A stretch of 64,000 bases of DNA from a virus: positions 20,030-84,029 of IMG/VR virus record IMGVR_UViG_3300020442_001264; one strand, written 5' to 3'. Below are positions 12,014 to 49,138 of the stretch, piece after piece (position 1 is the stretch's first letter; each line of letters opens with the position of its first letter). Position numbers and translations under genes: made by a program. Under the pieces are notes generated by a model that was not told the DNA's origin, made no database searches, and was given only the letters and a program-made list of their open reading frames with translations.

Positions 12014-12376
12014 ATGTCGTCTAAACTAGAAAAAGCACTCGAATTCGCTAATTATCGTACAACTTTAAATGTACAGCACAATGCCTTAAAAGCAAAAGTG
12101 CAAACATTATTAAGTTATAGCATAAACGGTGGAACATTTGAAATATCGCAAGAACTGATTTCTTTTATCAAATTACTATTAGATAAAGAGTATACTGATG
12201 CAGTACTTTTAGATACTTATAATAATCCTATACAAATAGAAAATCTAGACGACTTCTTAGAGGAGATTTTATCAAGATACTTTGAAGCAGTAAATGAATA
12301 TCATGCTGAATATCAAAAAATAAGAAAAGCAAGAAAAGTACACAAATTGATAGATTTAAATTTAGATGACTCATAA
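12014..12376 (+). CDS. Conserved hypothetical phage protein
   Basis: 120 aa; LEKALEFANYR, NGGTFEI; first gene of the modification block. Confidence 0.7.
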   Translation: MSSKLEKALEFANYRTTLNVQHNALKAKVQTLLSYSINGGTFEISQELISFIKLLLDKEYTDAVLLDTYNNPIQIENLDDFLEEILSRYFEAVNEYHAEYQKIRKARKVHKLIDLNLDDS

Positions 12377-13061
12377 TTATATATTTGATGTAGACGGCAC
12401 ACTTACACCTAGCAGAGGTTCAATAGACCCAACATTCTATAAACAATTTTTACAGTTTGCAAAAACACACAGAGTATTTCTAGTTACAGGCAGTGACAAA
12501 ATGAAAACTGTAGAACAAATAGGATTAGAGATTTATAATACTTGTATGCAAGTATTTAATTGCAGTGGTAATGATATCTATTATGGGGATAAACAATTAT
12601 ATAAAAATAATTGGAAACTGCCCCAGGCGGCTAAAGACTGGCTAACAGTAAAATTAAATGAAAGCGAATATCCTATTAGAACAGGTTTACATTTTGAAAA
12701 CAGAACAGGTATGTGTAACTTTAGTGTAGTAGGCAGACATGCAGACCAAGAACAACGCAAAGACTATTATGCATACGATTGTATCGAAAAAGAACGAGAG
12801 AAAATATCACAGGAATTTAATTTAATGTTTCCAAAACTACAAGCAGATGTAGGTGGTGAAACAGGCATAGATGTTTTTCAAAAAGGTAAAAACAAAGCAC
12901 AGGTATTGCAATATTTTAGTAATCCAGAAACAATAAAATTTTATGGTGATAGAACAGATCCTGCAGGAAACGATTATTCTATTGCTTGTCTATTAGAACC
13001 TCATCAAGTCTATGCTGTCTCAGATTGGAAACATACATCGGAGTTATTAAAAAATGAGTAA
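12366..13061 (+). CDS. HAD-IIB hydrolase, eukaryotic-type phosphomannomutase family
   Basis: FDVDGTLTPSR motif I, VTGSD, RTGMCNFSVVGR, IDVF.KG.NK, FYGDRT.P.GNDY. Confidence 0.85.
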   Translation: MTHNYIFDVDGTLTPSRGSIDPTFYKQFLQFAKTHRVFLVTGSDKMKTVEQIGLEIYNTCMQVFNCSGNDIYYGDKQLYKNNWKLPQAAKDWLTVKLNESEYPIRTGLHFENRTGMCNFSVVGRHADQEQRKDYYAYDCIEKEREKISQEFNLMFPKLQADVGGETGIDVFQKGKNKAQVLQYFSNPETIKFYGDRTDPAGNDYSIACLLEPHQVYAVSDWKHTSELLKNE

Positions 13062-13944
13062 AGGTTTTTTGATGTTTGCTCATAACAACAATGAGATTGA
13101 TTACCTAAAACTTGCTGTGGTAAATGCTTTACTTATAAAACAAAATTGTGATATACATGATATCACAGTGGTAACAAATCAGCACAGTTATGATTATACT
13201 GTAGAACAATTAGGAAAAGATTTTGTACATAATGCAATATCTAATATTGTAATTACAGAAAAAGATAAAGACTTTAAACGTGCAAATCAAAGACTATATA
13301 AAGATACCAGTCATACAAGCAAAGCATTGCCCTTCTACAACGTGGATAGATGCGATGCATACAATATATCACCTTATGACGAAACGTTGCTTATTGATGC
13401 TGATTATTTAATTTTGAGCAACAGTTTAAACAGTTGTTGGGGACATGAAAATGAATTAATGATGAATTGGTCATATCAAGATATCATGTCAGAACGAGAT
13501 GACCCGACATTAAAAAGATTAAGCCCAACAGGAATAACAATGTATTGGGCAACAGTAGTGTATTTTCGAAAAACAGATTTTGCAAAACAATTTTTTAAAA
13601 CAGTTGCACATGTAAGAGATCATAGAGAATTTTACCAAGATGTTTACAAATGGCCCGGCAATTTATACAGGAATGATTACAGTTTCAGTGTTGCCGCACA
13701 TATGATGAGTGGTTTTGTAGACAAAGGTATACCACAACTTCCAGTCCCCTATCTGTATAAAACTTTTGATACAGATGATATTCATAGTGCTCCGGCACCA
13801 AATGAACTCATTTTTTATCTTGAGAAACCCAAAAGTTTAGGCGACTTTATGTTATGCAGATGGAGTGGGCTGGATATCCATGTAATGAATAAATGGGCAA
13901 TAAATAGAACTAGTAATGTATTAATGGAGTATGCAAATGTATAA
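13054..13944 (+). CDS. GT-A-fold (GT8-like) glycosyltransferase-like protein
   Basis: SPYDETLLIDADY (DxD), YRNDYSFS, HVMNK; paralog of 15800. Confidence 0.6.
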   Translation: MSKGFLMFAHNNNEIDYLKLAVVNALLIKQNCDIHDITVVTNQHSYDYTVEQLGKDFVHNAISNIVITEKDKDFKRANQRLYKDTSHTSKALPFYNVDRCDAYNISPYDETLLIDADYLILSNSLNSCWGHENELMMNWSYQDIMSERDDPTLKRLSPTGITMYWATVVYFRKTDFAKQFFKTVAHVRDHREFYQDVYKWPGNLYRNDYSFSVAAHMMSGFVDKGIPQLPVPYLYKTFDTDDIHSAPAPNELIFYLEKPKSLGDFMLCRWSGLDIHVMNKWAINRTSNVLMEYANV

Positions 13945-15280
13945 ATTATTACAACCATGGACTCCCGACTTTAATGCTAAGTATAGAGATATTTTTTATC
14001 TAGGTGAAAATCGACATAAGATAAGCATGAACAGTATGGACCACAGTCCTATAACAGATTTGAAACAACTTGGCTTTGATATAAAATATAGAAATAAAAT
14101 TCAAGGTGAACATTTTTTAAAATTTCTAATTGAACAAAATGCACAAAAAAATAGTATAACTTATGTAATGAATTTTGCATTAAGTGTGTACCCGTGGTAT
14201 GACTCAGGATCTGAGTTAAAAGATATTATAGAAAGTTTTTCTAGTGTTAAAGGCTTTGATAATTTAAAATGGCGGTTTGCAAACACATGGGATTTATATT
14301 GCATGGAAGAAGAACAAGATAGATTAAATTGGTTTTTAGAATCAACTAGTAAACTTAAACAAGAAAATATTATTATGGATTTAGTAAATTTTGATATAGT
14401 TGATTTATATAAAGAACATTTACCCAAAGCAGATATTAATTACAAAAGTGTGTATTTTTCAAACTTAGTACTTTGTAATATGAGAGGCAGAGATGTTTAT
14501 GAACCAACTTTAGACAAACGGGAAAAGCATGTTTTAACTTTTAATAATATTGTAAAGACACACAGAAATGCAATAGTCGATTTATGTGCTGAGCATGATG
14601 ATAAGACACTTTATAGTTATATAGGTAGAGATATTTTGTTGGACTCTGAAGAATGGGAATTGTTTGATAAAAATTATACTGCTGGTCCTCATATGGGTTT
14701 ACTATGGAGACCTCCATACAAATTAATAAATTCTGCTTACACACTTATTAGTACTGAGACATTTTTTGAAGACGACAGAACTTACAATTTTGACGACACA
14801 CGTCGAAGGTCAGCATTCGATAGAAGTCAGAATTGGGAATTATCAGATGATTTCGAAGGCAAACACAGAGAAAGTGTTGTGTTAAACAAAAACGTTAAAT
14901 ATGCATACATAACAGAAAAAAGTTTTAAATCTGCATTTTTTAAATTGCCTATGATTATTTGTGGTTTGCAAGGAAGTTTAAAAACTTGGCACAGGTTAGG
15001 CTTTGAAAGTTTTCCTGAGTTTTTTGATGAACAATATGATACTATTACAAATGCAGACGAAAGATTAGAAAAAGTTAAAAGTGAAATTTTAAAAATAATC
15101 AATATGGACACAAACGACTTACATGAGTTATACCATAGTAAAATTGTTCAAGAAAAATTAGAACATAATCAACAACAATTTTTTAAACATTATTTAAACG
15201 ATTTTAAATATCACACATTTAACTATAAACAGAATGTTCATCCGTTAATGGATAAAATTATGGAACAATCTGATGCGTAA
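13937..15280 (+). CDS. Glycosyltransferase-like protein with GT10/fucosyltransferase-type TEK motif
   Basis: ISTET...YITEKSFKS..KLPMI...LGFESFPEFFDEQYD...HN; paralog of 26016, 27331 and 28455. Confidence 0.55.
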   Translation: MYKLLQPWTPDFNAKYRDIFYLGENRHKISMNSMDHSPITDLKQLGFDIKYRNKIQGEHFLKFLIEQNAQKNSITYVMNFALSVYPWYDSGSELKDIIESFSSVKGFDNLKWRFANTWDLYCMEEEQDRLNWFLESTSKLKQENIIMDLVNFDIVDLYKEHLPKADINYKSVYFSNLVLCNMRGRDVYEPTLDKREKHVLTFNNIVKTHRNAIVDLCAEHDDKTLYSYIGRDILLDSEEWELFDKNYTAGPHMGLLWRPPYKLINSAYTLISTETFFEDDRTYNFDDTRRRSAFDRSQNWELSDDFEGKHRESVVLNKNVKYAYITEKSFKSAFFKLPMIICGLQGSLKTWHRLGFESFPEFFDEQYDTITNADERLEKVKSEILKIINMDTNDLHELYHSKIVQEKLEHNQQQFFKHYLNDFKYHTFNYKQNVHPLMDKIMEQSDA

Positions 15281-15449
15281 GAAAAAACCACCTAAGTTAG
15301 GAGATTACATTGAGCATACTTGTAGACTTAACGGCACTTTTCAAGGCACAGTAGTACAACTATTAGGTATGCAATTTGTTTACGAAACAGGAGACGGCAA
15401 CACACGTTTTTGTTTATATAGAGAAGAGTGGAAACACATAGAGGAATAA
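15273..15449 (+). CDS. Small hypothetical protein (58 aa, not in ORF track)
   Basis: MRKKKPPKLGDYIEHTCRLNGTFQG...; fills the gap and overlaps the upstream stop. Confidence 0.55.
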   Translation: MRKKKPPKLGDYIEHTCRLNGTFQGTVVQLLGMQFVYETGDGNTRFCLYREEWKHIEE

Positions 15450-15451
15450 CA

Positions 15452-15799
15452 ATGGAAGATTTTATTATTACATTAATTGTTTTAGGTCTATTGGCTGGCG
15501 CAATATATCTTAATGTAGTATTACAAGATACTAAAGCAATGGATATAATGAAAAAAATATTTTGGCCTTTGATTAAATTAAAAGAATGGGTTGACCCAAA
15601 CCACTGGGCAAATAAATTAGGCGAAAAGAGTGGTGCTTATGACAAAGCAAGAAACAGCAAAATAAGAAAATGGGGCGACAGTCTAGAAGGCTGGAGATGG
15701 TGGACTTGGCAAATTGTAGGTGGTGGAATTACACTTTTGATAATTGAATTCTTACTTAACATCACAATTGGCTATTCAATTCTACCTTGGAGATGGTAA
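15452..15799 (+). CDS. Hypothetical membrane protein
   Basis: SD GAGGA before ATG 15452; N- and C-terminal hydrophobic helices; Trp-rich. Confidence 0.6.
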   Translation: MEDFIITLIVLGLLAGAIYLNVVLQDTKAMDIMKKIFWPLIKLKEWVDPNHWANKLGEKSGAYDKARNSKIRKWGDSLEGWRWWTWQIVGGGITLLIIEFLLNITIGYSILPWRW

Positions 15800-16663
15800 T
15801 TGAGTAAAGGTTATATAGTAATAGCACAAAACAATGATACTGTGGATTATCTAGAACAGGCGTATGCTCTTGCTTTAAATTTAAAACTCACACAGAGTAC
15901 TGTAAGTAATCTAACAGTATGTGTAGATCCTAAGACTAAGTCGATGATTACACAAAAACATAAAAACGTTTTTGATAAAATTGTTGATATACCATGGACT
16001 GACAATGCCGCAGATGCAGAATGGAAAATTAATAACAAATGGAAATACTATTATATGACACCATATGATGAGACTGTTATACTAGACACTGATATGATAT
16101 TTCCGTTTGATGTAAGCAATTGGTGGGAACATCTAAGTACTAAAGATGTTTGGGCATGTACTAATGTAAAAACATATCGTAATGAGTTAGTAGATGATAT
16201 GTATTATAGATTAGATATGAAAAGAAATAAAATGCCAAATGTTTATACAGCATTTTTCTATTTTAAGAAAAGTGATACAGCAACAGAATTATTTAAAATG
16301 ATACAAATTATTTTTGAGAATTGGGAGAGGTTTTATTTTAAATATATGCCTAAAGGTAAACCTGACTGGCTAAGTGCAGATGTGGCATACAGTCTAGCAA
16401 TACAATTATTGGGTATAGAAGATAAATGTACTATGGATCATATAGAAGATTTACCTACGTTTATACATATGAAAAGTTTTGTGCAAAATATAGCAACAAG
16501 CGAAATAGAAGAAGATTGGACTAAGAGTATACCAACATATTATAAAAGTTATAAAGATTTTAAAATAGGAAATTTTCAAATTACATATCCTTTTCACTAT
16601 GTGCAAAAGGATTGGATGACAAAAGATAAAATACAGCAGATGGAAATAGAGGTCAATAAATGA
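15800..16663 (+). CDS. GT-A-fold (GT8-like) glycosyltransferase-like protein
   Basis: TTG start; TPYDETVILDTD (DxD), PNVYTAFFYF, SADVAY, FIHMK, PFHY; paralog of 13054. Confidence 0.6.
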   Translation: MSKGYIVIAQNNDTVDYLEQAYALALNLKLTQSTVSNLTVCVDPKTKSMITQKHKNVFDKIVDIPWTDNAADAEWKINNKWKYYYMTPYDETVILDTDMIFPFDVSNWWEHLSTKDVWACTNVKTYRNELVDDMYYRLDMKRNKMPNVYTAFFYFKKSDTATELFKMIQIIFENWERFYFKYMPKGKPDWLSADVAYSLAIQLLGIEDKCTMDHIEDLPTFIHMKSFVQNIATSEIEEDWTKSIPTYYKSYKDFKIGNFQITYPFHYVQKDWMTKDKIQQMEIEVNK

Positions 16664-17226
16664 GAAATAAAATAGCATTAAGTATGGCAAAGTTTTTTAG
16701 ATTTTTTGCTGATACATTTTTTGCACAAAGATATGGACATAGAGCAGTAGTATTAGAAACTGTAGCAGGTGTGCCTGGTATGGTTGCAGGCATGTGGTTA
16801 CATTTTAAAAGTCTGCGTAAAATGAAAACAGGCTATGGACCTGACATAAGAGAAATGTTAGCAGAAGCAGAAAATGAAAGAATGCATTTGATGTTCTTTA
16901 TAGAAATAGCACAACCAAATTGGTTTGAAAGAGCATTAGTGTTAATTGCACAGATAACATTCATGATTTATTATTTTTTACTTTACATACTAAGTTATAG
17001 ATTAGCACACAAAATGATTGCATACTTTGAAGAAGAGGCAGTAAAAAGTTATACAGATTATCTTGCTCTTGTAGAAAGTGGACAAGTAGAAAATGTTCCT
17101 GCTCCACAGTTAGCAATAGATTATTATAAAATGAAAAAGAATGCAAAACTATCTGACTTAATAAAAAAAGTTAGAGCAGATGAAGAACATCATAGTAAAG
17201 TAAATCACAGGTACGCAGATGGATAA
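16660..17226 (+). CDS. aox: Alternative oxidase (di-iron ubiquinol oxidase)
   Basis: All AOX motifs are present: LETVAGVPGMV, EAENERMHL, EEEA..SY, RADEEHH. Confidence 0.93.
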   Translation: MRNKIALSMAKFFRFFADTFFAQRYGHRAVVLETVAGVPGMVAGMWLHFKSLRKMKTGYGPDIREMLAEAENERMHLMFFIEIAQPNWFERALVLIAQITFMIYYFLLYILSYRLAHKMIAYFEEEAVKSYTDYLALVESGQVENVPAPQLAIDYYKMKKNAKLSDLIKKVRADEEHHSKVNHRYADG

Positions 17227-17824
17227 TTTAACACCAGGTGAACGTCTTGCCCTATTAAAAGAAGAAAAAGGCAACCTAGCAGAAGCTCAAAAAGAGATGA
17301 TTGCTTTTACCTATATTGTATATGACGAAGACGGTAATATACATTATAAAGGTATTACAAAACCAGATATGTCTACATATGATGACAGTTTTAAATTTTA
17401 TAAGTTTAATACATCAGATGTAAGAATTATAGATTCTCAAGGACAAAGTATGGCACAATTTTTAATAGAAGAAGATGAGCATGATGTATGCCATATAAAA
17501 TTAAAAACAATAGAGTCAACAAAAATACGAGCAAACAGAGATTTCTTAACAGAAATAACCAGCACAGATGACGATTATGATGTGATGTTTGGGTATACTG
17601 CAGATGACTGGGTGATATCTATACGTGAAAATTTAAAACTCAAACAGCAATTAAGTTTTTATATAACACCTATAAAAGAACCTCATATACTTTTAGAACG
17701 TGTTGCAGTACCATTAGAACTATTTGCCGATGATAATATTGTATTAATAAAACGAAAAAATAAAATATCAGAAAACTTCAGTATTTACACTCACAAGAAT
17801 TTTGACAAGTACTCTAGAATTTAA
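17219..17824 (+). CDS. Hypothetical protein
   Basis: 201-aa ORF overlapping the aox stop. Confidence 0.6.
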   Translation: MDNLTPGERLALLKEEKGNLAEAQKEMIAFTYIVYDEDGNIHYKGITKPDMSTYDDSFKFYKFNTSDVRIIDSQGQSMAQFLIEEDEHDVCHIKLKTIESTKIRANRDFLTEITSTDDDYDVMFGYTADDWVISIRENLKLKQQLSFYITPIKEPHILLERVAVPLELFADDNIVLIKRKNKISENFSIYTHKNFDKYSRI

Positions 17825-17865
17825 GATAAATATGTGCGTAGTTAACACAACAGGACGCACATATG
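17825..17865 (+). promoter_or_regulatory. Late-promoter-like element within the 5' arm of a hairpin that pairs the start codon
   Basis: TAAATA at 17827-17832. ATATGTGCGT (17830-39) is the exact reverse complement of ACGCACATAT (17855-64), which overlaps the end of the SD AGGA and the ATG at 17863. Confidence 0.7.
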
Positions 17866-18861
17866 GCAAAACTAGACGTTACAGAACTAGACATATTTTA
17901 TATTTCATACGATGAACCAAACTGTGAAGAACATTGGTCAGATTTACTAAACAAAGTACCTTGGGCTAAACGTGTTCATGGAGTAAAAGGTTTCGACGCC
18001 GCACATAAAGAATGTGCAAATCAATCAGAAACAGATAGATTTATCACCGTAGACGGTGACAACATTGTCATGCCTGATTTTTTTGAACAAGTACTAGACA
18101 TTCCTGATACTGACCACGATGGTAATAACATTGCAGAAAGTATTTTTAGTTGGAACGGCAAAAACATTTTAAACGGTTTAGTGTATGGAAATGGCGGACT
18201 AAAGTGTTGGCCTACAGAATACACAAAAACAATACACACTCACGAAGCCGCCACTGACGGTGAAGGTATGGAGTTTTGTTGGAAACTTAACTACATACAA
18301 CTAAATGATACATTTAGCGAAGTACATCAAACAGCCAGTCCATTCCAAGCCTTTAGAGCCGGCTTTCGTGAAGGTGTTAAAATGAGTTTGGATGAAGGCA
18401 CAAGAATAAAACCAGATGAGTTTAAAGAAAGAGTCTGGTGGCAGAACTATAATAGATTGCAAACATGGTGCAACATAGGAAGTGATGTTGAAAATGGATT
18501 ATGGGCAATTTATGGTGCTAGACTAGGTTGTAAAATGACAGTACTAAGTGATTGGGATACTAACTTGATATCAGATTATGATTGGTTTAAAGACTTTTTT
18601 AATAATGATGTTCTTCCACGTTTCCCAGGAGATGAGGTTTGTCGATACACAAAAGTTAATTGGAACAAGGAAATGTTGTACATAGGAATACAAGATTTAG
18701 GTGTAGAACTTAATGATAACATAAACGAAATGATGTTGTTTGATCCTAATGAGCAAATGTGTAAATTCTTTAAAAAGACTTATGTGAATCCAAGACGTTG
18801 GGGTGTAATGATTAGAGAAAAACAAATCCAAGATTTATTGGAGAAAGGATTAATTCAATGA
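17863..18861 (+). CDS. GT-A-like (nucleotide-diphospho-sugar transferase-like) phage protein
   Basis: DIFYISYDEP, GVKGFDAAHK, ITVDGDN (DxD), YGNGGLK, AFRAGFREGVKM; homologous to the C-terminal unit of 43325. Confidence 0.6.
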   Translation: MAKLDVTELDIFYISYDEPNCEEHWSDLLNKVPWAKRVHGVKGFDAAHKECANQSETDRFITVDGDNIVMPDFFEQVLDIPDTDHDGNNIAESIFSWNGKNILNGLVYGNGGLKCWPTEYTKTIHTHEAATDGEGMEFCWKLNYIQLNDTFSEVHQTASPFQAFRAGFREGVKMSLDEGTRIKPDEFKERVWWQNYNRLQTWCNIGSDVENGLWAIYGARLGCKMTVLSDWDTNLISDYDWFKDFFNNDVLPRFPGDEVCRYTKVNWNKEMLYIGIQDLGVELNDNINEMMLFDPNEQMCKFFKKTYVNPRRWGVMIREKQIQDLLEKGLIQ

Positions 18862-19019
18862 AAACAGGTTGGACAATATGGAAATATGCCATAGGTTCAT
18901 TCAGTGATGAGAAAACAAAAGACTATGACAATTACGTTGCAGTAATAAGAACATTTGTAGTTTTAGTAAACGTTGTTTGTGCATTTTTTATTATGGCAAA
19001 CATCATACATAATTGGTAA
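18858..19019 (+). CDS. Small membrane protein (53 aa, not in ORF track)
   Basis: MKTGWTIWKYAIGSFSDEKTKDYDNYVAVIRT...; ATGA overlap upstream and TAATG overlap downstream. Confidence 0.65.
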   Translation: MKTGWTIWKYAIGSFSDEKTKDYDNYVAVIRTFVVLVNVVCAFFIMANIIHNW

Positions 19020-21226: not shown

Positions 21227-21233
21227 TAATAAA

Positions 21234-21998: not shown

Positions 21999-22167
21999 AA
22001 GTTTAGGAAAAGCAATTACATGGAGAATCACTGCAACACTCACGACAATTATAATAGCATGGCTACTTATAGGAGATGTAAATGTTGCCATGGCGATTGG
22101 CAGTATAGAGTTTTTTGCTAAATTTTTAATTTACTACATTCATGAAAGAGTATGGAACAAAATATGA
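21979..22167 (+). CDS. DUF2061-like small membrane protein
   Basis: RSLGKAITWR...YYIHERVWNKI. Confidence 0.75.
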   Translation: MKESKLRSLGKAITWRITATLTTIIIAWLLIGDVNVAMAIGSIEFFAKFLIYYIHERVWNKI

Positions 22168-22332: not shown

Positions 22333-22340
22333 AGTAAATA
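22333..22340 (+). promoter_or_regulatory. Late-promoter-like element AGTAAATA, 5 nt before ATG 22346
   Basis: TAAATA at 22335-22340, then CAACA, then ATG. Confidence 0.65.
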
Positions 22341-38670: not shown

Positions 38671-39293
38671 GCAAAGTATTATTAAAAACATCAGGTAGAA
38701 CAGGCTCGCACTTGTTGTTAGACAAGTATGAGAAAGAAGGTCATAGGGTATACTTCACTGCTACACATGACACAAAATCATTGTACGAATATGATTTAAC
38801 AGAAAGTCTAATTCCGTTTAACTTTGATTTTATTGTGCAATGTCATTTAATGCAACTACCAAAAGACACATCACAATGGGATTTAATTTTTAACGTAAGA
38901 GGCGATATGATATCTCAGATATGTAGCAGTATAATTGCACACCACACAGATGTTTGGCATGGTGTTGCAGAAATTAAAGAAAAGATTGTAGTAGATAAAC
39001 ACACAATTAAACAACAAGTAATTAAGCATGTAAGTTTTAATACTTACATGAAATATGTTTGCGAATACTTGCCGTGGAAGTCTACACAAAGAATATCAAC
39101 AGAAGAAATACTACAAGAGGATTGGACTCATTTAGAATACAAAAAATCTATTAAACATGAAGATGCTATAGATGATTATGAGAATGTCAGGAAGTATGTT
39201 GCAAATGTACAAGCAAGATTTTATGACTTAGGTGTAGCATATGGTAAAACAGAATTTGATAAAAGGTACGGAGACAAATATGACATACAGTAA
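38667..39293 (+). CDS. Sulfotransferase-like P-loop protein
   Basis: N-terminal GRTGSHLL (PAPS-loop-like) and R..ISQICS; similar to 58688. Confidence 0.5.
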   Translation: MSKVLLKTSGRTGSHLLLDKYEKEGHRVYFTATHDTKSLYEYDLTESLIPFNFDFIVQCHLMQLPKDTSQWDLIFNVRGDMISQICSSIIAHHTDVWHGVAEIKEKIVVDKHTIKQQVIKHVSFNTYMKYVCEYLPWKSTQRISTEEILQEDWTHLEYKKSIKHEDAIDDYENVRKYVANVQARFYDLGVAYGKTEFDKRYGDKYDIQ

Positions 39294-41306: not shown

Positions 41307-41514
41307 TAAAGATAAAGAAGACTTTAACGGCTTAGGTCCTGTCGATAAAGTTATTGATATGGGAGACTTACAAGGTAATCCTATACCAGAAGAAAAAGAC
41401 ACAGAACAGAAGGACGTGGATTTAGATGATGTTGAACTTTCCGAAGAAGAGGAAGAATTGTTAAAAAAGAAATTAGAACAGATTCGTAAAAACGATCCAT
41501 TTATATATAGATGA
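41299..41514 (+). CDS. Small acidic protein ending in DPFIYR
   Basis: 71 aa, very Asp/Glu-rich; ATGA-coupled to the carbamoyltransferase. Confidence 0.65.
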   Translation: MTNKDKEDFNGLGPVDKVIDMGDLQGNPIPEEKDTEQKDVDLDDVELSEEEEELLKKKLEQIRKNDPFIYR

Positions 41515-43064
41515 GAATATTAGGAATTAGTTGTATGTTTCATGACGCGAGTACATGCGTTATAGAAGATGGTGAAATTTTATTTGCCGGACATGCAGAA
41601 AGATACAGTAGAGTAAAAAACGATGCATACTTAAATCAACGTTTGATGAAAGATACATTAAAACATGGTTTACCAGATATAATCGTTTTACACGAAAGTA
41701 CAAGATTAAAAAACAGAAGAAGATTAAAACAATTTACTTGGAGCAGTATTAAGGCGGCTATTACGGAAATAACTGCTGAAGAATGGATTGCAAAGTTTTA
41801 TCCACAGTTAAAAGGCATACCAGTAGTTAATTGTTTACATCACGAAAGCCATGCGGCGGCAGGCATACTTACTTCACCAGAACATTTTGATGATGCGGCT
41901 ATAATGACAATAGATGCTATAGGTGAATTCCAAACATCAACAATTTATAGATGGGAGACACATCGTAGTGGTGATACTAGAATGCAACTGCTACATGACA
42001 CAAATTTTCCAAACAGTTTAGGTTTATTTTATAGTGCTATTACAAGTGCTGTTGGTTTGAAACCTATGGAAGATGAATATATCTTAATGGGTATGGCGGC
42101 ATATGGTAAGCCATTATATGTAAATAAAATTAACAAAGAATTATTTAAACACCCAAATGCAACAGACAACTTGCGTGAATGTTTACATACTGTGAATATG
42201 AGTAAAGGTTTACCTAAAAACTTTATGAGTGCAGAAGCATTAGCAGACGAGCAAACACAATTTGATTTAGCCGCAAGTGCTCAACAAGTATGTGAAGAAA
42301 GAATATTGGCTTATGCCAAGTTAGCAAAAGAATACACACAAAGCAATAACTTAGTATTCATGGGAGGGTGTGCATTAAATTGTGTAGCAAACAGTAGACT
42401 ATATGAACTGTTTAATAATATACACATTATGCCTAATCCAGGAGATGCCGGTAGTGCCTTAGGTGCCGCGGCATTGTATTGGCATAAACATACTAGCAAA
42501 AGAGTAAATTGGAATGGTCCATATACTGGATATAATATTTCAGGTGAATGGCCAAAAGAAAAATTTTTACAAAGTATGCGTAAAGGACAAATATTTGGTG
42601 TAGCAAATGGTAAAGCAGAATATGGTCCTAGGGCTCTTGGTAACAGAAGTTTATTTGCTGATCCTAGAGGCGAAGAAATAAAAGATAAAGTAAATGAAAT
42701 AAAACGTAGGCAAAAGTTTAGACCTTTTGCTCCTATAGTATTAGAAGAACACGCCAGTGATTGGTTTGAAATGCCTGGTGGTGTTATAGATAGTCCTTAC
42801 ATGCAATTTGTTGCAAAATGTAAGAGACCAGAAATTATACCTGCGGTAGTACATGGGGATGGTACAAGCAGAGTGCAAACGGTTAACAGAAAAAATCATC
42901 CGGATTTATATCATGCTATGAGACAGTGGCATGCTGAGTCAGGGTGTCCAGTTGTTCTAAATACAAGTTTAAATATCAAAGGACAACCAATTGTTAATAC
43001 TGAAAAAGAAGCAGAAGAGTTTGCAACTCATTATAAGGTGCCAGTTCATGTCAGAGACGACTAA
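41511..43064 (+). CDS. Carbamoyltransferase (NodU/CmcH/TobZ family)
   Basis: HDAS, AERYSRVKND, HHESHA, DAIGE, MGMAAYG, GGCALN, GPRALGNRS, RPFAP, LNTSLN. Confidence 0.93.
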   Translation: MRILGISCMFHDASTCVIEDGEILFAGHAERYSRVKNDAYLNQRLMKDTLKHGLPDIIVLHESTRLKNRRRLKQFTWSSIKAAITEITAEEWIAKFYPQLKGIPVVNCLHHESHAAAGILTSPEHFDDAAIMTIDAIGEFQTSTIYRWETHRSGDTRMQLLHDTNFPNSLGLFYSAITSAVGLKPMEDEYILMGMAAYGKPLYVNKINKELFKHPNATDNLRECLHTVNMSKGLPKNFMSAEALADEQTQFDLAASAQQVCEERILAYAKLAKEYTQSNNLVFMGGCALNCVANSRLYELFNNIHIMPNPGDAGSALGAAALYWHKHTSKRVNWNGPYTGYNISGEWPKEKFLQSMRKGQIFGVANGKAEYGPRALGNRSLFADPRGEEIKDKVNEIKRRQKFRPFAPIVLEEHASDWFEMPGGVIDSPYMQFVAKCKRPEIIPAVVHGDGTSRVQTVNRKNHPDLYHAMRQWHAESGCPVVLNTSLNIKGQPIVNTEKEAEEFATHYKVPVHVRDD

Positions 43065-43323
43065 TCCAGATTTAGAATTAATAAACAAAAAATGTAAAGA
43101 GCCTTGGCTTTTCGATGACAGTCTTACTGATGCAGAAAGAATGTATTGGAAGTTAAAAGGTGTTTGCCATGTGTGTAAATATCCTGTGGCTTATCACAAA
43201 GACGACTGTCCGTTTAGTGATGTGCAATTACACTTTGCACAAATAGACAAAGAATTATATGCTGTTACAGATATAGGATTTGTAAACAGTGAAAAGTTGA
43301 AACAACTGCTTAACAAGAAATAA
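43048..43323 (+). CDS. Hypothetical protein with CxxC..H..C zinc-finger-like motif
   Basis: CHVC..HKDDC; likely start ATG 43048. Confidence 0.55.
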   Translation: MSETTNPDLELINKKCKEPWLFDDSLTDAERMYWKLKGVCHVCKYPVAYHKDDCPFSDVQLHFAQIDKELYAVTDIGFVNSEKLKQLLNKK

Positions 43324-43324: not shown

Positions 43325-46300
43325 ATGTACGATATTTTTTACATCGGCGATAACAACACACTAAAAGAAAGATTACCTTTTGCTAATCAAGTAAACAATA
43401 TTGATGAAATAAAATCTAATACAAAATTGTACTGGTTAGTAGACAGTAATACTAAAATTACCGATTGGGAATTATTTGATTTCAAACCAGATGTGCATAC
43501 AGAAAAATATGTACATGTGTGGAAATGGAATCAAGAAAATTATGGCGGAGTTAGTCTTCTGCCAAAAGGGGGAAGTGAGGAAACTGTATGGCATAACAAA
43601 GTTGTTTGTAAGAAACACTTTGACATATTGTTTGAGAATACACCAGGGAACTATTTTAAACAGAACCCATACAGTACTCACGTATGGTGTGTAGATAAAG
43701 ACTACATACTCAATGATGATATAGATTGGGCACCAGGGAACTTTGAACCAGACTATATCCACAGTTTCCATTTGCGTGGACAACTTGAACACAAGTATCC
43801 AGAACTTGAAGGGGGAGTTAAGTTATACCCACGCGAATGGTCATCTGCAGAAACAAAGTATCACAAATTCTTAGATGCAAATATCACATACCCAATACTG
43901 TATGTAAACGATGTTGATGATTATGCTCAACGTGATATATTAGAAGATGATTATGTTTGGCTAATAGATAAAGAACATTCTATAAATGTTAAAACAGTTG
44001 ATTGGGTTCCTAATGCATTTGAATACAACTATGTACATGTATTTAAAATGCCTTACCAATTAAAAGAAAAGTATCCTATGGCAATGGGAGGTATAAGACT
44101 TGTTCCTAAAGATTGGAAACAAGCAGAAATAAAAATACATCCTGCATGTCCTGTAGAAGATGAAGCATATGATGTGTTTTATGTAGACAGCGATGACTTC
44201 AATTCAGAAACATTCAGCGAGTATGCTCAACGTAGTAAAACTGATTGGTTCTGGATTGTAGATAGAGAACACACATTTAATGGTAAGTTATTGTATGTAC
44301 CAGCAAAGCACGAACTAGAATATATACATGTGTTTAAAGTGCCGGGACACTTAGAAGAACGTTACCCATTAGATTGTTTAGATCCGTGGGACAACAGATG
44401 CGGTGGCATTAAATTAATGAACAAGGAATTTGATGTTACACGTTACAAGTATCAAGAAGATGTTTGTCCTGTACGTTATGATATATTTTATGCAGATGAC
44501 ATAAACGATTATGAAACGCCTGCAAGAAAAAGTAGAACTAAAATGTTTTGGCTAGTGGATAGCGAACATCAAATCAATGAGGAGTTTAGATATGTACCAC
44601 AACAATATGACCAACAATACATACAGGTATTCAAGTTTCCAAATGACTTGGAACACAAATACCCAAGAGCAATTACAAATATCAGCGACAACAGAGCAGG
44701 AGGTATCAAACTTGTTCCAGTTAATGGGAGTGGCGATGCCAAGTTCGTTGACCAAAACCCAGTCGGAGGAAAAGTTTATCCCATCGTCTTTACTGATGCA
44801 TCAGATGTATCGCCTACGGAAGATTCTTGGATAGTACCTACAGCATTTAAAGGTATAGTAGATGTAGTACCATGGCAACCTAGTGTGTTTGAAAAGAATA
44901 CATGTCATGTGTTTGCAAATGGTTCTTTAAAATGGATGCCAGCACAATGGGACGGAGAAATAAAAAATCATGACTTTAGTCCTGTTATATTAAACATAGA
45001 GTTTGAAACATTTTCAAGTTATGAGGAAGGCAAAGACAAAAGTTTATTTAATTGGTTCTGGGTAGTTGATCCAAATGTAGAAGTATTAGATACATTTGAT
45101 TTTAGTTTCCAACCTAATGTGTTTGATGAAGGTAAAGCACATGTATGGCAAAAACTTAATCCTATAACAAACAAGCAATATGATTACGGTGGTGTTGAAT
45201 TACGTCATAAGAATGAAAAGAAAGGCAGACCTAAATACATGCGAGAACCTGCTTGTACGCAACGACCTTATCCAGTCTATACATTGACACCTCAGGATAT
45301 AAAACGTGGCTTAGACGACGTCTACGAACGTCTAGCAAACCAAACTGACGTGGGAATGATGTGGATAGTTGACAGTTTAGTACAGTTAGACGAAGACTTC
45401 AACTTTAGTTATTACCCTACTCAATATGATAAGGACGTAGTTCACATATGGAAACACGATGGAACAAGCAGAGTTACAGGTGTAAAACTAGTGCCTACAA
45501 GCATAAAATTTGAAAGTCATGACACTATATTACAAAATGCATTCGATAAATTAAAAGAAATACCCACTATTGCAAGTAAAGATATGGTATGGCCCGTTGA
45601 ACAATTAGCAGAAACCACAGTAAAAGGTGTAAAAGATGTGTTAGATTCGCACAAAGATGTGCGATATGTATATACAGTAGACCCAGATATTGATGTAGAT
45701 ACTGTGGAACAAGTAACACCACATGAAGAATTCTTGGATAATGTACACGTTTGGCAACGTACAAACAGCGAAGGACTGGTGATTGGGCATGGTGGATTGA
45801 GACTTTGGCCTACTGATTATGACATAGACTCACTTACAGATGAGCAAGTTGCTACATGTAGCATACCAGAACAGTTGATATTAAGTGCTGTTGGCGGTAC
45901 ACAAAAGGAATATCCTATACATTATTTGTCAGAAGATGGCGATATATTACAACAATTAGCAGACATAGACAGTAGTTGTGAGTCCAATATGTACTGGATA
46001 GTTGATCCTTTGGTTACATTTACACCAGATTGGCAGTGGGATTTTATTCCAACTAAGTGGGAAGAACAAGTTGTACATGTATTTCAAGACACGAATGAAG
46101 ACTTTAGAAGTGTTAGATTAGTACCTAAAGGAACATTTGACAAGCAACAATACACAATTAAACAAATAGTAAACAACAGTTTTAAAGATTTAAAACAAGT
46201 GTATAGACAAATAACAACTCCTACAGCATGGCCCATATACTACTTTGGGCAAGGAGAACATGGCAGTATGGGATTGAAGTTTCAATTAGAGCAGTTTGGT

Positions 46301-47263
46301 TGTCATGCAGAAGGCAAACATCTCAAACGTTTCTTCACAGTTGACGAACATACTGTAGTAGACAAAGACTTTAAATTTACACATACACCAAATTTAGACA
46401 GCATTAACAAAACACATGTGTGGCAAAGAACAAATCAAAGAACAGGGTTGGTACATAGTTATGGGGGAATTAGACTGTGGCCCAACCCGCCTGAAACTGC
46501 AATGGGCGACTTAACATCAGATAAAATACGTTTTAATAAAATGAAAGCAAACAGTTTACAGTATGTTAGAAGTAATGCTAGTAGTATACAACCATATGAA
46601 ATATTCATGTTGAGTTACAAAGAAGATGAATCAATTGTACAGCAACACATAGATGCTATCAGTATAAAAGGATTTGAAGTAAAACATGTGCGAGGTGTTG
46701 AAGGTATCTTTGAAGCACACAAGGCATGTGCAGAACAATGTGCAAGTGGAATGTTTTGGGTAGTTGATGCAGATGCAGATGTCAAAGAAGACTTTAACTT
46801 TGACTATATACCAGATGTGTATGACCAAGATGTTGTGCATGTGTGGGCAAGTGAGAATCCTGTTACAGGTGACCAATATGGTTACGGAGGTGTTAAACTG
46901 TTTAACACGCAACAGGTTAGGGAAGCGACTAGTTGGGGATTGGACTTTACCACAGGGTTGAGTACACGTTTTAAAGCAATGCCACAGATAAGTTGTGTGA
47001 CTAGATTTAACACAGACGCATACAGCACATGGCGTAGTGCATTCAGAGAAAGTGTTAAACTCACAATTAACAACAATGCAGAAAGTTCAAGTAGACTGGA
47101 CAGTTGGCTTAATCCATTAGCAGATTGTGATTACTGTGATGATGCCAAACATGGAGCAGAACAAGGTAAAGCATTCGCTTTGAAAAATAAACACGCACCA
47201 GAAGAGTTAAATAAAATTAATGATTATGAATGGTTGGAGGACACATGGAAACAATCAAGTTAG
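43325..47263 (+). CDS. Large tandem-repeat protein built from ~12 GT-A-like modules
   Basis: Recurring Y(D/P)I.Y...W.VD...P...(V/I)HV(W/F)...GG(I/V).L.P. The last unit is complete (GVEGIFEAHK, VVDAD, YGYGGVK, WRSAFRESVKL) and homologous to 17863. Confidence 0.7.
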   Translation: MYDIFYIGDNNTLKERLPFANQVNNIDEIKSNTKLYWLVDSNTKITDWELFDFKPDVHTEKYVHVWKWNQENYGGVSLLPKGGSEETVWHNKVVCKKHFDILFENTPGNYFKQNPYSTHVWCVDKDYILNDDIDWAPGNFEPDYIHSFHLRGQLEHKYPELEGGVKLYPREWSSAETKYHKFLDANITYPILYVNDVDDYAQRDILEDDYVWLIDKEHSINVKTVDWVPNAFEYNYVHVFKMPYQLKEKYPMAMGGIRLVPKDWKQAEIKIHPACPVEDEAYDVFYVDSDDFNSETFSEYAQRSKTDWFWIVDREHTFNGKLLYVPAKHELEYIHVFKVPGHLEERYPLDCLDPWDNRCGGIKLMNKEFDVTRYKYQEDVCPVRYDIFYADDINDYETPARKSRTKMFWLVDSEHQINEEFRYVPQQYDQQYIQVFKFPNDLEHKYPRAITNISDNRAGGIKLVPVNGSGDAKFVDQNPVGGKVYPIVFTDASDVSPTEDSWIVPTAFKGIVDVVPWQPSVFEKNTCHVFANGSLKWMPAQWDGEIKNHDFSPVILNIEFETFSSYEEGKDKSLFNWFWVVDPNVEVLDTFDFSFQPNVFDEGKAHVWQKLNPITNKQYDYGGVELRHKNEKKGRPKYMREPACTQRPYPVYTLTPQDIKRGLDDVYERLANQTDVGMMWIVDSLVQLDEDFNFSYYPTQYDKDVVHIWKHDGTSRVTGVKLVPTSIKFESHDTILQNAFDKLKEIPTIASKDMVWPVEQLAETTVKGVKDVLDSHKDVRYVYTVDPDIDVDTVEQVTPHEEFLDNVHVWQRTNSEGLVIGHGGLRLWPTDYDIDSLTDEQVATCSIPEQLILSAVGGTQKEYPIHYLSEDGDILQQLADIDSSCESNMYWIVDPLVTFTPDWQWDFIPTKWEEQVVHVFQDTNEDFRSVRLVPKGTFDKQQYTIKQIVNNSFKDLKQVYRQITTPTAWPIYYFGQGEHGSMGLKFQLEQFGCHAEGKHLKRFFTVDEHTVVDKDFKFTHTPNLDSINKTHVWQRTNQRTGLVHSYGGIRLWPNPPETAMGDLTSDKIRFNKMKANSLQYVRSNASSIQPYEIFMLSYKEDESIVQQHIDAISIKGFEVKHVRGVEGIFEAHKACAEQCASGMFWVVDADADVKEDFNFDYIPDVYDQDVVHVWASENPVTGDQYGYGGVKLFNTQQVREATSWGLDFTTGLSTRFKAMPQISCVTRFNTDAYSTWRSAFRESVKLTINNNAESSSRLDSWLNPLADCDYCDDAKHGAEQGKAFALKNKHAPEELNKINDYEWLEDTWKQSS

Positions 47264-47940
47264 ACAAGTGGGCAGATGTTAGTAGATACATAGACAGAGG
47301 TTTTTGGCAACCTGCTCCCACATACTTTGAACACATTGTTCAACGCAACACATACTATCCACCACATGCTTTCAGTAAAGGTCAGTTAGCATCAAAGAGT
47401 TGGTTACTCAAAGAGTTGGATCAAGTTGTAATTGATCCACCAGGCATAGTTGACCAACCCACACCCACAGTTGCTATATTGGGTTGTTGGATAGGCACCA
47501 TGGTGTGGAGTTTGCATGAACATTTTGATATAGAACGTATATACGGCATAGACAAAGATCCAGTAAGCATAGAAAAGAGTGAAACATTAAATCAACAGTT
47601 TGTGCAGGACAACTGGAAATACAAAGGCGTTGTTGCAGATGTAGACATGTTGGATTGTGGTGAAATGCAATTTGAAACAGGTGGCGAGTTGATTGATGTC
47701 AAACCCAATTGGGTTATTAACACCAGCAGTGAACACATGAGTACATTGTGGTTTGACAGCATAGAGTCTGACCAATTGGTCATAATGCAAACCAACAACA
47801 GCGAAGAGTTTGAAGGACACATCAATCCTTGTAGCAGTATACTGCAAATGCAAGAGATGTATCCCTTGAGTGAAACATTGTATGTGGGCGAACTTATTAC
47901 TCCAGCATACAGCAGATACATGCAGATAGGACACAAATGA
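47245..47940 (+). CDS. Class I SAM-dependent methyltransferase-like protein
   Basis: SD GGAGG; SKGQLASKSWL, ILGCWIG, IDKDP, INTSSEH. Confidence 0.6.
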   Translation: METIKLDKWADVSRYIDRGFWQPAPTYFEHIVQRNTYYPPHAFSKGQLASKSWLLKELDQVVIDPPGIVDQPTPTVAILGCWIGTMVWSLHEHFDIERIYGIDKDPVSIEKSETLNQQFVQDNWKYKGVVADVDMLDCGEMQFETGGELIDVKPNWVINTSSEHMSTLWFDSIESDQLVIMQTNNSEEFEGHINPCSSILQMQEMYPLSETLYVGELITPAYSRYMQIGHK

Positions 47941-48644
47941 AGAACATAATTGTGGTGTGTAAACGTGGTTTCAAACGTACTAGAATGTATACTGTGGAAC
48001 ATGTAAACATCATGAAGAACATGTTGGATAGACACGGCACTGAATATGACAATTTTGTGTGTATCACAGACCAAAAAGACACAATGCCCAGTGACATAGA
48101 AGTATTTGAAATACCAGATATACCACAACACAAAGGTTGGTGGGCTAAAATAGAAACATTTAATCCTAAATTACCAGTAACAGGAGACAATTTATACATT
48201 GATTTAGACTGTGTGGTAGTGGATAACCTGGATTGCTTGTGGGAATATCAGCCAGGAGGACCTTGTAAAATAATTAATTGCAGTAAATATTATGCAGATA
48301 CTGTGGGTTGGCAGTACAACAGTAGTGTGTACAGATATAAAATTTCGGATTTTGAATTTATTTGGTGGGATTACAGAACCAAATGGGAACATATTCAACG
48401 AAATTATTTCTTTGGAGATGAGAAATACACATCAGATATGGACAAAAAAAGCAAAATGTATCCTGAAGAATGGATATATAATTATGAACATGTAATATTA
48501 CAAGGCGGTAGACATCATATGACCAGCATTAAAGCCGAAATTACTGATAGTGTGTTACCTGAAAACAGCAAAATTGTGTGGTTTGGTGGCGGACACAAGC
48601 CTTGGAGATGCAAGGATAACACCATAAAGGAGCATTATCAATGA
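47937..48644 (+). CDS. GT-A-fold glycosyltransferase-like protein
   Basis: FVCITD, GWWAKIETF, YIDLD (DxD), YNSSV, GDE, KPW. Confidence 0.7.
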   Translation: MKNIIVVCKRGFKRTRMYTVEHVNIMKNMLDRHGTEYDNFVCITDQKDTMPSDIEVFEIPDIPQHKGWWAKIETFNPKLPVTGDNLYIDLDCVVVDNLDCLWEYQPGGPCKIINCSKYYADTVGWQYNSSVYRYKISDFEFIWWDYRTKWEHIQRNYFFGDEKYTSDMDKKSKMYPEEWIYNYEHVILQGGRHHMTSIKAEITDSVLPENSKIVWFGGGHKPWRCKDNTIKEHYQ

Positions 48645-49138
48645 CACCAATTATGTTAGGCAAACGATTGGTCAAGCATCTACATGATGTTGTCACAGAA
48701 CAAGACTGGGTAGATGAGCCTTTACCACCCAATCACATGAACATACACCGTTCAGAACACCCAGTACCCAGTAAATTAGTGTTTGCTTTTGGACCGAAGG
48801 TCATAAAAGACTTACGACTACGCACTGGATTCACTGTGAGCATAGAGCAAATCAGCGGTGGAGGGGAGAGTCACAAACACAGTTGGAATGCATTTCCAAA
48901 AAAACGTGCTTGTTTGTTGATATATCTAGGAGACAATCCCACAGAACTGGGCTACACAGATCCCAGAAACAATGAATATCATACTGTGATGCTACACAAA
49001 GGCGATACTTTTATACTGAGCACACATCACAATTTCCATTACAACAACGTACACAGCGATACTGGGGCAATCTTTTTGACTGTTAATGCTGATATGAGTT
49101 GGAGTGATACTGTGAGACACTGGCAACACACCTGGTAG
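48641..49138 (+). CDS. Hypothetical protein, possible cupin/2OG-like fold
   Basis: His-rich beta-type sequence (SHKH, LSTHHNFH); last + strand gene of the block. Confidence 0.45.
   Translation: MTPIMLGKRLVKHLHDVVTEQDWVDEPLPPNHMNIHRSEHPVPSKLVFAFGPKVIKDLRLRTGFTVSIEQISGGGESHKHSWNAFPKKRACLLIYLGDNPTELGYTDPRNNEYHTVMLHKGDTFILSTHHNFHYNNVHSDTGAIFLTVNADMSWSDTVRHWQHTW

Follow-up and report, generated by a model that had tools for sequence, protein, structure and literature searches.

The DNA described here, referred to as the window, is a stretch of 64,000 nucleotides (nt) comprising bases 20030-84029 of an 84-kb viral contig (IMG/VR record IMGVR_UViG_3300020442_001264; CheckV completeness 23%). Positions 12014-49138 of the window are occupied by a block of co-oriented genes for eight radical S-adenosylmethionine (radical SAM) enzymes, nine glycosyltransferase (GT)-like proteins and a set of sugar-supply and tailoring enzymes. 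The block probably builds or tailors a glycan. The preferred explanation of the block as a whole, which falls a little short of being probable, is a late, cytoplasmic line of glycan assembly and tailoring that would decorate the fibre proteins of the phage. A sequence-only reading of the window had noticed the cluster and proposed a late-expressed pathway for a virion or host-surface glycan; its observation was confirmed and its interpretation is partly supported.

All 36 open reading frames (ORFs) of at least 96 amino acids (aa) between 12014 and 49138 lie on the plus strand. Five small plus-strand ORFs occupy the apparent gaps, which brings the total to 41. The earlier count of about 45 genes was thus too high; the co-orientation and overlap claimed with it stand, with overlaps at 32 of the 40 junctions. 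On the left, a terminator-like hairpin (11966-11991) with a T run is followed by GGTAAATA, 5 nt before the first ATG; this stretch (11966..12008, plus strand) is taken as the left boundary and putative late promoter. It is kept in the relative G001 (339,794 bp, 91% complete), which is collinear with the window over the whole of 12014-49138, the block wrapping around the ends of the G001 contig. On the right, a convergent minus-strand ORF (49140-49490) forms the boundary. A perfect sigma-70 consensus promoter of the leftward arm (TTGACA, 17 nt, TATAAT; 49906..49934, minus strand) marks the change of transcription regime.

The eight radical SAM ORFs match the NCBIfam model NF033640 (N_Twi_rSAM) over its whole length with 298-357 bits, against a cut-off of 170. 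They are designated R1 (19013..20656, 323 bits, with an insertion of ~75 aa), R2 (22941-24611, 319 bits), R3 (24598-26013, 298 bits), R4 (32764-34182, 303 bits), R5 (34179-35438, 351 bits), R6 (36150-37454, 357 bits), R7 (37432-38670, 348 bits) and R8 (39241..40581, 341 bits). In the alignment of all eight, C144, C148 and C151 (CX3CX2C) and G204-G205-E206-P207 (GGEP) are invariant, as are the N-terminal residues C22, C41, C82 and C85. Pfam SPASM matches residues ~6-111 in six of the eight, and the N-terminal Cys region of the family profile can be aligned with the twitch region of BtrN. These features point to a predicted auxiliary-cluster (twitch) domain N-terminal to the radical SAM core in every copy, and the number of radical SAM enzymes read from the letters alone was correct. 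By all-against-all BLAST the paralogues are mutually 21-34% identical, yet each has an orthologue with 36-73% identity in distant type I and II contigs, and the orthologues keep one of two fixed orders, R3-R4-R5-R6-R7-R8 or R1-R2-R6-R7-R3. Because their mutual identity is low and their orthologues are nevertheless clear and ordered, the paralogues would be enzymes that diverged long ago, not products of recent duplication, and this favours different steps within a single pathway.

With a profile built from all eight sequences, at least 7,302 representatives (50% identity) were retrieved at E up to 1e-30 among 1.84 billion entries. Many of the top matches are fused double or triple radical SAM proteins of 770-1,466 aa with two or three matched stretches, and the four clusters listed out of the 30 nearest in the Atlas are 97-100% viral. 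A tblastn search with one paralogue found three of 50,697 phage records, namely Vibrio phages K566 and K567 and Ralstonia phage RsoM2USA, and megablast of 22 kb of the block against the same records gave zero matches. The relatives of the profile among solved structures are all distant: SkfB (E 9e-7), BlsE (E 4e-6), viperin, MoaA and the twitch region of BtrN (E 0.0096). No paper was found that gives a function for the N_Twi_rSAM family. Three N-twitch radical SAM genes ~85% identical to those of the window lie on a 14-kb contig (L087) of a metagenome-assembled genome labelled Gammaproteobacteria. That genome is the only one over the radical SAM cut-off among 401 genomes of its phylum sample (0.5-2.1 Mb each). 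The L087 contig is probably phage DNA; otherwise it would be a hint at the host.

The nine GT-like proteins, a number already given in the sequence-only reading, fall into four sequence groups and not into the three families proposed there: family A with two members, family B with four, family C with two, and ORF 47937. Paralogue families lacking an assignment were delimited by all-against-all BLAST and then tested by fold or profile. The identification of all nine is based on fold or profile and not on Pfam, and transfer activity is predicted. For family A (13054..13944 and 15800..16663, the second copy placed by paralogue BLAST and the family profile), a 12-sequence profile matches 19 glycogenin (GT8) sequences at E 1e-6 to 1e-5. 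The GT8 match is partial (profile positions 16-109); in the DxD region D115 is nearly invariant and D117 invariant, and Pfam Glyco_transf_8 gave no match. Comparison by hhalign showed no relationship of family A to ORF 47937 or to family C past the DxD stretch.

Family B comprises 13931..15280 and three consecutive genes at 26016-27341, 27331-28458 and 28455-29642, the first-named being a paralogue of ORF 26016. Its AlphaFold2 (AF2) model has a pLDDT of 88. The best 50 VIA matches of this model are all GT-B structures (Z 8.3-10.6 over 243-294 residues), with Foldseek probabilities of 0.9-0.99, and T4 beta-glucosyltransferase is among them with Z 9.7. Neither family B itself, at E up to 5, nor any of 19 homologues has a Pfam match, and no PDB sequence-profile match was obtained. 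H245-R246 and E333-K334 are invariant in the family; these residues presumably resemble the GDP-fucose-binding residues of GT10 enzymes.

Family C is represented by 17863..18861 (AF2 pLDDT 74). The model matches WrtF and PBCV-1 A64R with Foldseek probabilities of 0.99-1.0; the VIA comparison gives Z 8.5-9.9 and a root-mean-square deviation of 3.1-4.3 A over 129-146 residues, the best GT matches lying at 3.2-3.6 A over ~135-140 residues. The consensus at the DxD place is VDAD; ORF 17863 has VDGD and the last domain of the second member VDAD. That second member, a protein of 1312 aa (43325..47263), consists of eight degenerate copies of the central strand-DxD-strand segment of family C, ~90-265 aa apart, followed by one complete GT-A-like domain (residues 1087-1311); its homologues span 402 to 1,731 aa. 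Pfam Glycos_transf_2 did not match family C, and a PDB sequence-profile search gave nothing useful. The viral clusters nearest to family C are labelled 'GT2-like' in the Atlas, none with a common Pfam family. The ninth protein, ORF 47937 (47937-48644), matches phrog_1962 'glycosyltransferase' at E 6e-21.

Sugar supply is represented by a phosphomannomutase (PMM) of the HAD-IIB type (12366..13061; PF03332, E 2.9e-25), a short-chain dehydrogenase/reductase (SDR; 22346..22948) and an NDP-sugar dehydrogenase of the UDP-glucose/GDP-mannose family (UGD; 29681..30997). Pfam and NCBIfam agree with the earlier assignment of these three. Among the tailoring enzymes named with them, Pfam bears out a NodU/CmcH-type carbamoyltransferase (41511..43064; PF16861, E 3e-53; PF02543, E 6e-41), a 2-oxoglutarate (2OG)-Fe(II) oxygenase (31001-31792) and a di-iron protein of the fatty-acid desaturase family (35416..36177; PF00487, E 3e-11). 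The remaining labels are weaker. The presumed APS kinase (21234-21998) is a P-loop domain with 36.8 bits fused to a cytidylyltransferase-like domain. The probable fold-type-I pyridoxal-phosphate (PLP) enzyme (31776-32783) has an invariant SLGK and weak aminotransferase matches, its score of 17.9 bits being under the cut-off of 19.7. The best match of the methyltransferase-like protein (47230..47940) has an E of only 0.1, its PDB profile matches being weak as well. The SGNH label (40572-41306) stems from a DUF6071 match and conserved Ser/Gly/Asn/His motifs, a PDB sequence-profile search with this protein giving nothing useful, and the sulfotransferase-like label of a 208-aa protein (38667..39293) from its N-terminal TSGRTGS motif alone. 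Of 18 proteins rescanned with Pfam, 12 were without a match even at E up to 5.

The module is conserved well beyond the window. In G001, 31 of the 36 block ORFs are matched in order, the unmatched ones being PMM, ORF 15428, the alternative oxidase (AOX), the P-loop kinase and ORF 38667; PMM, AOX and the kinase are best regarded as variable extras and not as part of the pathway core. At least one N-twitch radical SAM gene lies within 10 kb in 50 of 70 viral loci retrieved with the carbamoyltransferase, and 39 hold at least four. In 61 more distant loci, radical SAM genes were found in 40-41, family C in 43-46, family B in 24-31 and the methyltransferase-like gene in 30. Usually five or six radical SAM genes come first, followed by a small gene, the carbamoyltransferase gene, another small gene, the gene of the big family C protein and finally the methyltransferase-like gene. 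A predicted core of five or six radical SAM enzymes, carbamoyltransferase, repeat-bearing GT-A protein and methyltransferase-like protein thus recurs in dozens of uncultured viral contigs, and GT and radical SAM genes are interleaved in every version. This recurrence, together with the collinearity of G001, agrees with the idea that these families belong together in related phages. Genes for NDP-sugar 4,6-dehydratase/epimerase and DegT aminotransferase stand beside the module in three of eight distant loci (L049, L055, L063) and DegT alone in a fourth (L053); PIG-L and mannose-6-phosphate isomerase/cytidylyltransferase were each found in one of the eight.

The promoter-like elements of the block resemble those of the virion genes. 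The hexamer TAAATA is common in this AT-rich DNA, and the window contains 35 copies on the plus and 32 on the minus strand. Among the plus-strand copies in 8000-49200, 10 of 28 sit 6-60 nt before an ORF start, a zone which makes up 5.9% of positions (binomial p 2e-6), and four fall in the intergenic DNA, which amounts to only 301 nt. The copies reported earlier at 12003, 17827, 22335 and 29624 are all present. A GATAAATA element (17827..17832, plus strand) lies 30 nt before 17863 and a AGTAAATA element (22335..22340, plus strand) 5 nt before 22346, both conserved in G001; GATAAATA is also found at 29622-29629 before the NDP-sugar dehydrogenase gene. TAAATA is kept at five orthologous sites in G001 (before 10903, 12014, 17863, 22346 and 29681) despite diverged flanks, and the same element precedes the gp25-like baseplate gene. 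The shape of the element is (G/A)(G/A)TAAATA and not TATAAATA. The late sigma factor gp55 of phage T4 recognises one TATAAATA-type element. A gp55-type factor is encoded in G001 (phrog_12791, E 2e-94; phrog_234, E 7e-24), and none was found in the window's own contig, which covers 23% of the genome.

Sigma-70-like sites are no more frequent in the block than in shuffled sequences (87 versus 96+/-10 and 82 versus 89+/-10). If at least 11 of 12 matches are required, five co-oriented sites are left in the 15-kb leftward arm and one in the 37-kb block; the sequence-only reading had spotted no consensus sigma-70 promoter inside. The leftward arm also has an excess of terminator-like sites (16 versus 7.0+/-2.2 in shuffles). 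RNA-library contigs from one marine sample lie on parts of the fibre genes and of 13931, 17863, 19013, 21234 and 22346/22941, and leave most of 12003-17338 and 18673-25999 uncovered; as support these contigs are weak, because they may stem from DNA carry-over. In two of the four runs (X1 and X3), contigs start matching at 17838, 6 nt after the TAAATA at 17827-17832, and a third starts at 17853; all runs are from the same sample. Position 17838 is where a T4-type late transcript would start; such contigs cannot prove a start. The five conserved motifs, the gp55-type factor of G001 and the sigma-70 sites of the neighbouring arm strengthen the view that the block carries late-type, non-early promoters, and its late transcription is a well-grounded computational prediction.

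Where the product would go is suggested by gene neighbourhood and by the lack of export parts. The nine GT-like and eight radical SAM proteins are all without a predicted transmembrane (TM) helix, and searches of the block with Pfam and NCBIfam gave no flippase, polymerase, transporter or priming transferase family. A polytopic membrane protein was not seen in it either: its predicted TM helices are confined to small ORFs, which have one or two, and AOX and the desaturase each contain a single hydrophobic segment. Since the GT-like and radical SAM proteins are without membrane helices and export parts are absent, the product is expected to be made in the cytoplasm. Three fibre-like genes precede the block on the plus strand (8249-8890, 8904-10868 and 10903-11949), with Ser plus Thr contents of 17%, 19% and 27%; PHROG tail-fibre matches were obtained for 8904. 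The first part of the block, cassette 1 (12014-20656), has the order ORF 12014, GT8, GT8, x, GT-A, radical SAM. Its leading gene encodes a 120-aa protein (12014..12376) without Pfam or PHROG match, homologues of which head the same cassette in G001, RsoM2USA, L046, L047, L056 and L059. A Ser/Thr-rich fibre-like ORF (21-27% Ser plus Thr, or a homologue of ORF 10903) stands directly before cassette 1 in all seven carriers examined, that is, the window and these six, and is a detectable homologue of ORF 10903 in G001, RsoM2USA, L056 and L059. The upstream Ser/Thr-rich fibre proteins are therefore candidate acceptors of the glycan. A further Ser/Thr-rich region is found in the gp6-like wedge (L001 4953-9377, plus strand), whose C-terminal tail of ~110 aa past the family profile has a Ser/Thr/Gly-rich end with 62% Ser/Thr over 40 residues. 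The conserved link to a fibre gene and the absence of membrane or export components tilt the interpretation towards the virion; that the glycan ends on virion proteins is plausible, if short of probable.

In the preferred reading the block would be transcribed together with the late (virion) genes. Sugar nucleotides would come from the host and from the phage-encoded NDP-sugar dehydrogenase, phosphomannomutase, kinase/nucleotidyltransferase, SDR and PLP enzyme. The nine soluble GT-like proteins (two GT8-like, four GT-B, two GT-A, one other) would assemble an oligosaccharide, on which each of the eight radical SAM enzymes could carry out a different radical step, by analogy with BtrN and BlsE. 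Oxidation, epimerisation, deoxygenation, decarboxylation and C-C or C-methyl chemistry are candidates for these steps. The carbamoyltransferase, the methyltransferase-like protein, the 2OG oxygenase, the SGNH-like protein and perhaps a sulfotransferase might finish the structure. The likeliest acceptors would be the Ser/Thr-rich fibre proteins encoded directly upstream, which would amount to virion glycosylation. A bolder version, and a rather doubtful one, is that the N-twitch radical SAM arrays represent phage-borne radical tailoring of glycans without a cellular counterpart, in which five to eight orthologous enzymes, each with its own radical step, would act together with dedicated GT-A, GT-B and GT8 enzymes and a carbamoyltransferase and place a chemically new, heavily modified glycan on the tail fibres of widespread marine and soil jumbo phages; such a glycan would take part in host recognition or environmental survival.

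Several observations weigh against glycosylation of the fibres by the block. All nine GT-like proteins are without a match to Pfam GT families, even at E up to 5, and their assignments consist of predicted folds of middling score (TM score 0.3-0.45, Z ~10) and one partial profile match. Nucleotidyltransferases such as MobA and IspD also have the GT-A fold of family C and reach similar scores. Among solved structures the radical SAM profile comes closest to the peptide-modifying SkfB, with the sugar-acting BlsE close behind. G001 lacks PMM, AOX, the kinase and ORF 38667, so that not all 41 ORFs need share one pathway. Two of the TAAATA elements lie just 5 nt from an ATG, a strange spacing if a ribosome-binding site is to follow the promoter, and the element also occurs before some leftward genes of unknown timing. 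Several distant modules adjoin genes for ThyX, ThyA or serine hydroxymethyltransferase (SHMT). In Vibrio phage K566 four N-twitch-type radical SAM genes stand among NAD-salvage and small hypothetical genes, and members of families A, B and C were not detected there. Many phages without glycosylation also have Ser/Thr-rich fibres, and the adjacency to fibre genes may be synteny inherited among related jumbo phages.

The main rival explanation is remodelling of the host envelope, in which lipopolysaccharide, O-chain or capsule would be altered from the cytoplasmic side, blocking superinfection or the sticking of progeny to debris. Such a role has been proposed for a pelagimyophage cluster of the same position and content, with O-chain modification as the favoured reading (PMC7029224), and the additional genes related to lipids (SCP2, desaturase, SDR) and the four small ORFs for membrane proteins would fit it. 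It is nevertheless judged unlikely. With no priming transferase, flippase, polymerase, ligase, transporter or GT with a TM helix, the phage would rely fully on host export; late-type promoters would leave scant time for a surface change to matter; and the cassette stays tied to one fibre-gene family across distant phages. Alternatively, the block could be a hypervariable island that gathers unrelated auxiliary cassettes and makes no single product. Such a mosaic could account for the five ORFs without counterpart in G001, for the lack of an obvious glycan-pathway role of AOX, desaturase and SCP2, for the union in the window of two radical SAM array types that are separate elsewhere, and for a GC content below that of the flanks. 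The core order and orientation are kept over large distances, however, the overlapping junctions are as in translationally coupled operons, and the interleaving of GT and radical SAM genes is universal among the versions, so that a mosaic without common function appears improbable.

The three remaining explanations keep a biosynthetic or modifying role and change the product or the target. Twitch radical SAM enzymes in combination with carbamoyltransferase, GT, methyltransferase, aminotransferase and dehydrogenase recall clusters for aminoglycoside or nucleoside antibiotics (BtrN, BlsE, TobZ-type), and BlsE and BtrN are among the nearest solved relatives of the phage family. A small molecule of this kind, or a cofactor, made during infection in place of a polymer-bound glycan is considered very improbable, because nine GT-like proteins and the 1312-aa repeat protein exceed the needs of such pathways, and the block lies in the virion-gene arm and has no resistance or export gene. 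Radical chemistry directed at protein, with the radical SAM enzymes cross-linking or epimerising virion proteins and the GTs acting separately, would agree with SkfB as best solved match and with the many weak NCBIfam matches of the radical SAM proteins to peptide maturases. Those matches fall far under the family cut-offs; neither a gene resembling a precursor peptide nor an RRE domain was seen in the block, and sugar enzymes accompany the arrays in all relatives examined, which makes this explanation more improbable still. Least probable of all is hypermodification of DNA, with complex glycans on modified bases. P-loop kinases, PLP enzymes, 2OG oxygenases and radical SAM enzymes occur in thymidine hypermodification clusters. 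ThyX, ThyA or SHMT adjoins the module in some contigs, and T4 beta-glucosyltransferase is among the GT-B fold matches. Phage GTs are known that decorate DNA with a range of glycans (Pyle et al. 2024, as cited in PMC12619734), and the citing paper also treats the glucosylation of phage DNA. Against this, a search for the ThyA/hydroxymethylase family (PF00303), which its control detected in 10 of 14 genomes, was negative both for the window's contig and for the 91% complete G001, the latter having ThyX; late-type promoters, a position in the virion arm and nine GTs, far beyond known DNA systems, point the same way. The sequence-only reading had likewise disfavoured DNA modification.

The remaining ORFs of the block, all on the plus strand, are as follows. 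A full-length AOX/PTOX-type di-iron oxidase gene (16660..17226; PF01786, 231 bits) is variable and may be an independent auxiliary metabolic gene. It is followed by a gene for a 201-aa protein (17219..17824) for which no family could be named and which is conserved in G001. Pfam supports a WYL_2 protein with an Sm-like SH3 fold (20610-20900) and a protein with an SCP2-like lipid-carrier fold (20870-21226). Four small hydrophobic ORFs were noted: 15428..15799, with two predicted TM helices and a match to phrog_31764 (unknown function); 18858-19019 and 22152-22331, both of which fill gaps; and 21979-22167, which encodes a DUF2061 membrane protein (72 bits) and overlaps the APS-kinase-like gene at the end of the latter. 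DUF2061 is presumably often fused to APS kinases. A 71-aa acidic ORF (41299-41514) fills a gap before the carbamoyltransferase gene, beside which a gene for a 110-aa Cys-rich protein (42991..43323) is kept in relatives. The last gene of the block encodes a 165-aa protein (48641-49138) for which no family was named.

The phage origin of the window, as claimed from the letters alone, is borne out. Upstream of the window the contig carries T4-type baseplate genes for a gp5-like hub, a gp25-like wedge and the 1474-aa gp6-like wedge. A single plus-strand open frame of ~6,290 aa then runs from contig (L001) base 9383 to window base 8223 (3,539 aa in L001 and 2,740 aa in the window). Its matches are to virion structural or baseplate wedge PHROGs (phrog_10938, 2885 and 4406), and its product looks like the giant 'VrlC-like' protein of marine myoviruses. 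The nearest relatives of the baseplate wedge are in the jumbo myoviruses Salicola SCTP-2, Pseudomonas PA5oct and Agrobacterium Atu_ph07 (35-39% identity), and cyanophage records are also among the 179 wedge matches. Because of these baseplate relatives and the collinear 340-kb relative, the source is, as judged from its genes, a marine jumbo myovirus. No tRNA genes or Rfam families were found in the window. The GC content of the block falls to 0.28-0.33 in several 2-kb windows of 12001-30000, compared with 0.34-0.40 in the structural and leftward arms. The leftward arm (49000-64000, minus strand) encodes a DNA ligase, an exonuclease and many unknowns and is probably the early region.

If the glycan is indeed placed on the virion, phage virion glycosylation would extend from a few simple transferases to a 37-kb pathway, with consequences for how hosts are recognised, how stable the particles are and what becomes of abundant marine phages. 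Linking the N_Twi_rSAM family to a conserved gene module also provides enzymologists with a concrete substrate hypothesis. The proposal is testable, as a compact version of the cassette is present in a cultured phage and the genes can be expressed heterologously.

Islands of GT and radical SAM genes after the fibre genes of marine myoviruses are already in print, as is a T4-like genome with 12 radical SAM genes. Zaragoza-Solas et al. (2020) described a hypervariable region after the giant VrlC gene of pelagimyophages and cyanomyophages as a 'host recognition cluster' with tail fibres, many GTs (GT8 being the commonest), UDP-glucose 6-dehydrogenase and radical SAM cassettes, and the part of the paper that treats the cluster favours O-chain modification (PMC7029224). 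The block of the window agrees with that cluster in its position, the ~6,290-aa ORF ending at 8223 and being followed by the fibre genes and then the block, and in its fibres, GTs, UDP-glucose dehydrogenase and radical SAM genes. The window phage need not be a pelagimyophage; its nearest baseplate relatives are in SCTP-2, PA5oct and Atu_ph07, and none of the three phage records found with the radical SAM paralogue is a Pelagibacter phage or cyanophage. The same passages of PMC7029224 do not resolve the radical SAM family, its orthogroups, a core module or the link between fibre and cassette. Nishimura et al. (2017) reported the T4-like environmental genome with 12 radical SAM genes, noted together with Fe-S cluster genes (PMC5332604). 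That virus and the window phage are both marine and T4-like with many radical SAM genes; the relevant passage there concerns Fe-S gene content and gives no pathway, glycan or family. The passages on 'Moraphages' in PMC12619734 mention GTs and no radical SAM enzymes. Searches for radical SAM together with carbamoyltransferase or GT in phages and jumbo phages found no functional study, supplements being outside their scope, and a literature search on late promoters of PA5oct yielded nothing of use. Not found in print were the arrays as one little-studied, mainly viral family with ancient, ordered orthogroups; the core with carbamoyltransferase and repeat GT-A protein; the identification of three GT families at the level of folds; the conserved link of fibre and cassette; and the compact homologous cassette in a cultured phage.

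Known glycan systems resemble the block in part. Wzx/Wzy- or ABC-dependent clusters for O-antigen or capsule contain a priming transferase, a flippase or ABC transporter and a polymerase, whereas Pfam and NCBIfam find none of these in the block. BtrN and BlsE combine a radical SAM core with one auxiliary-cluster twitch domain; the phage family differs in carrying the twitch on the N-terminal side of the core, and its matches to both enzymes are far too weak for membership. The family C model matches chlorovirus PBCV-1 A64R (2p6w) and Mimivirus R699 (9dzs) in fold only, with 10-12% identity. In giant viruses, cytoplasmic virus-encoded GTs build capsid or fibril glycans. These viruses are eukaryotic and have no radical SAM array. 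The mycobacteriophage glycosylation systems are known to have only a few GTs. Those enzymes glycosylate the C-termini of capsid and tail tube subunits (Freeman et al. 2023, via PMC12619734); the summary of this O-glycosylation given there names no radical SAM, carbamoyl or other tailoring enzymes, and the block, for its part, is known from its genes alone. The closest cultured counterpart is Ralstonia phage RsoM2USA (MG752970.1, L083), in which genes 347-355, all annotated 'hypothetical protein', make up a small homologous version of the cassette with the gene order kept and a fibre-like gene in front: an ORF 12014 homologue, two GT8-like genes, x, a GT-A-like gene, an N-twitch radical SAM gene, a GT-A-like gene and a methyltransferase-like gene. 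Eight of the nine are homologous to window genes, gene 351 having no match. The radical SAM protein is 45% identical to R1 and the carbamoyltransferase of the phage 44% identical to that of the window. RsoM2USA differs in that it is a soil phage with one radical SAM gene in the cassette in place of eight and with its carbamoyltransferase gene ~90 kb away.

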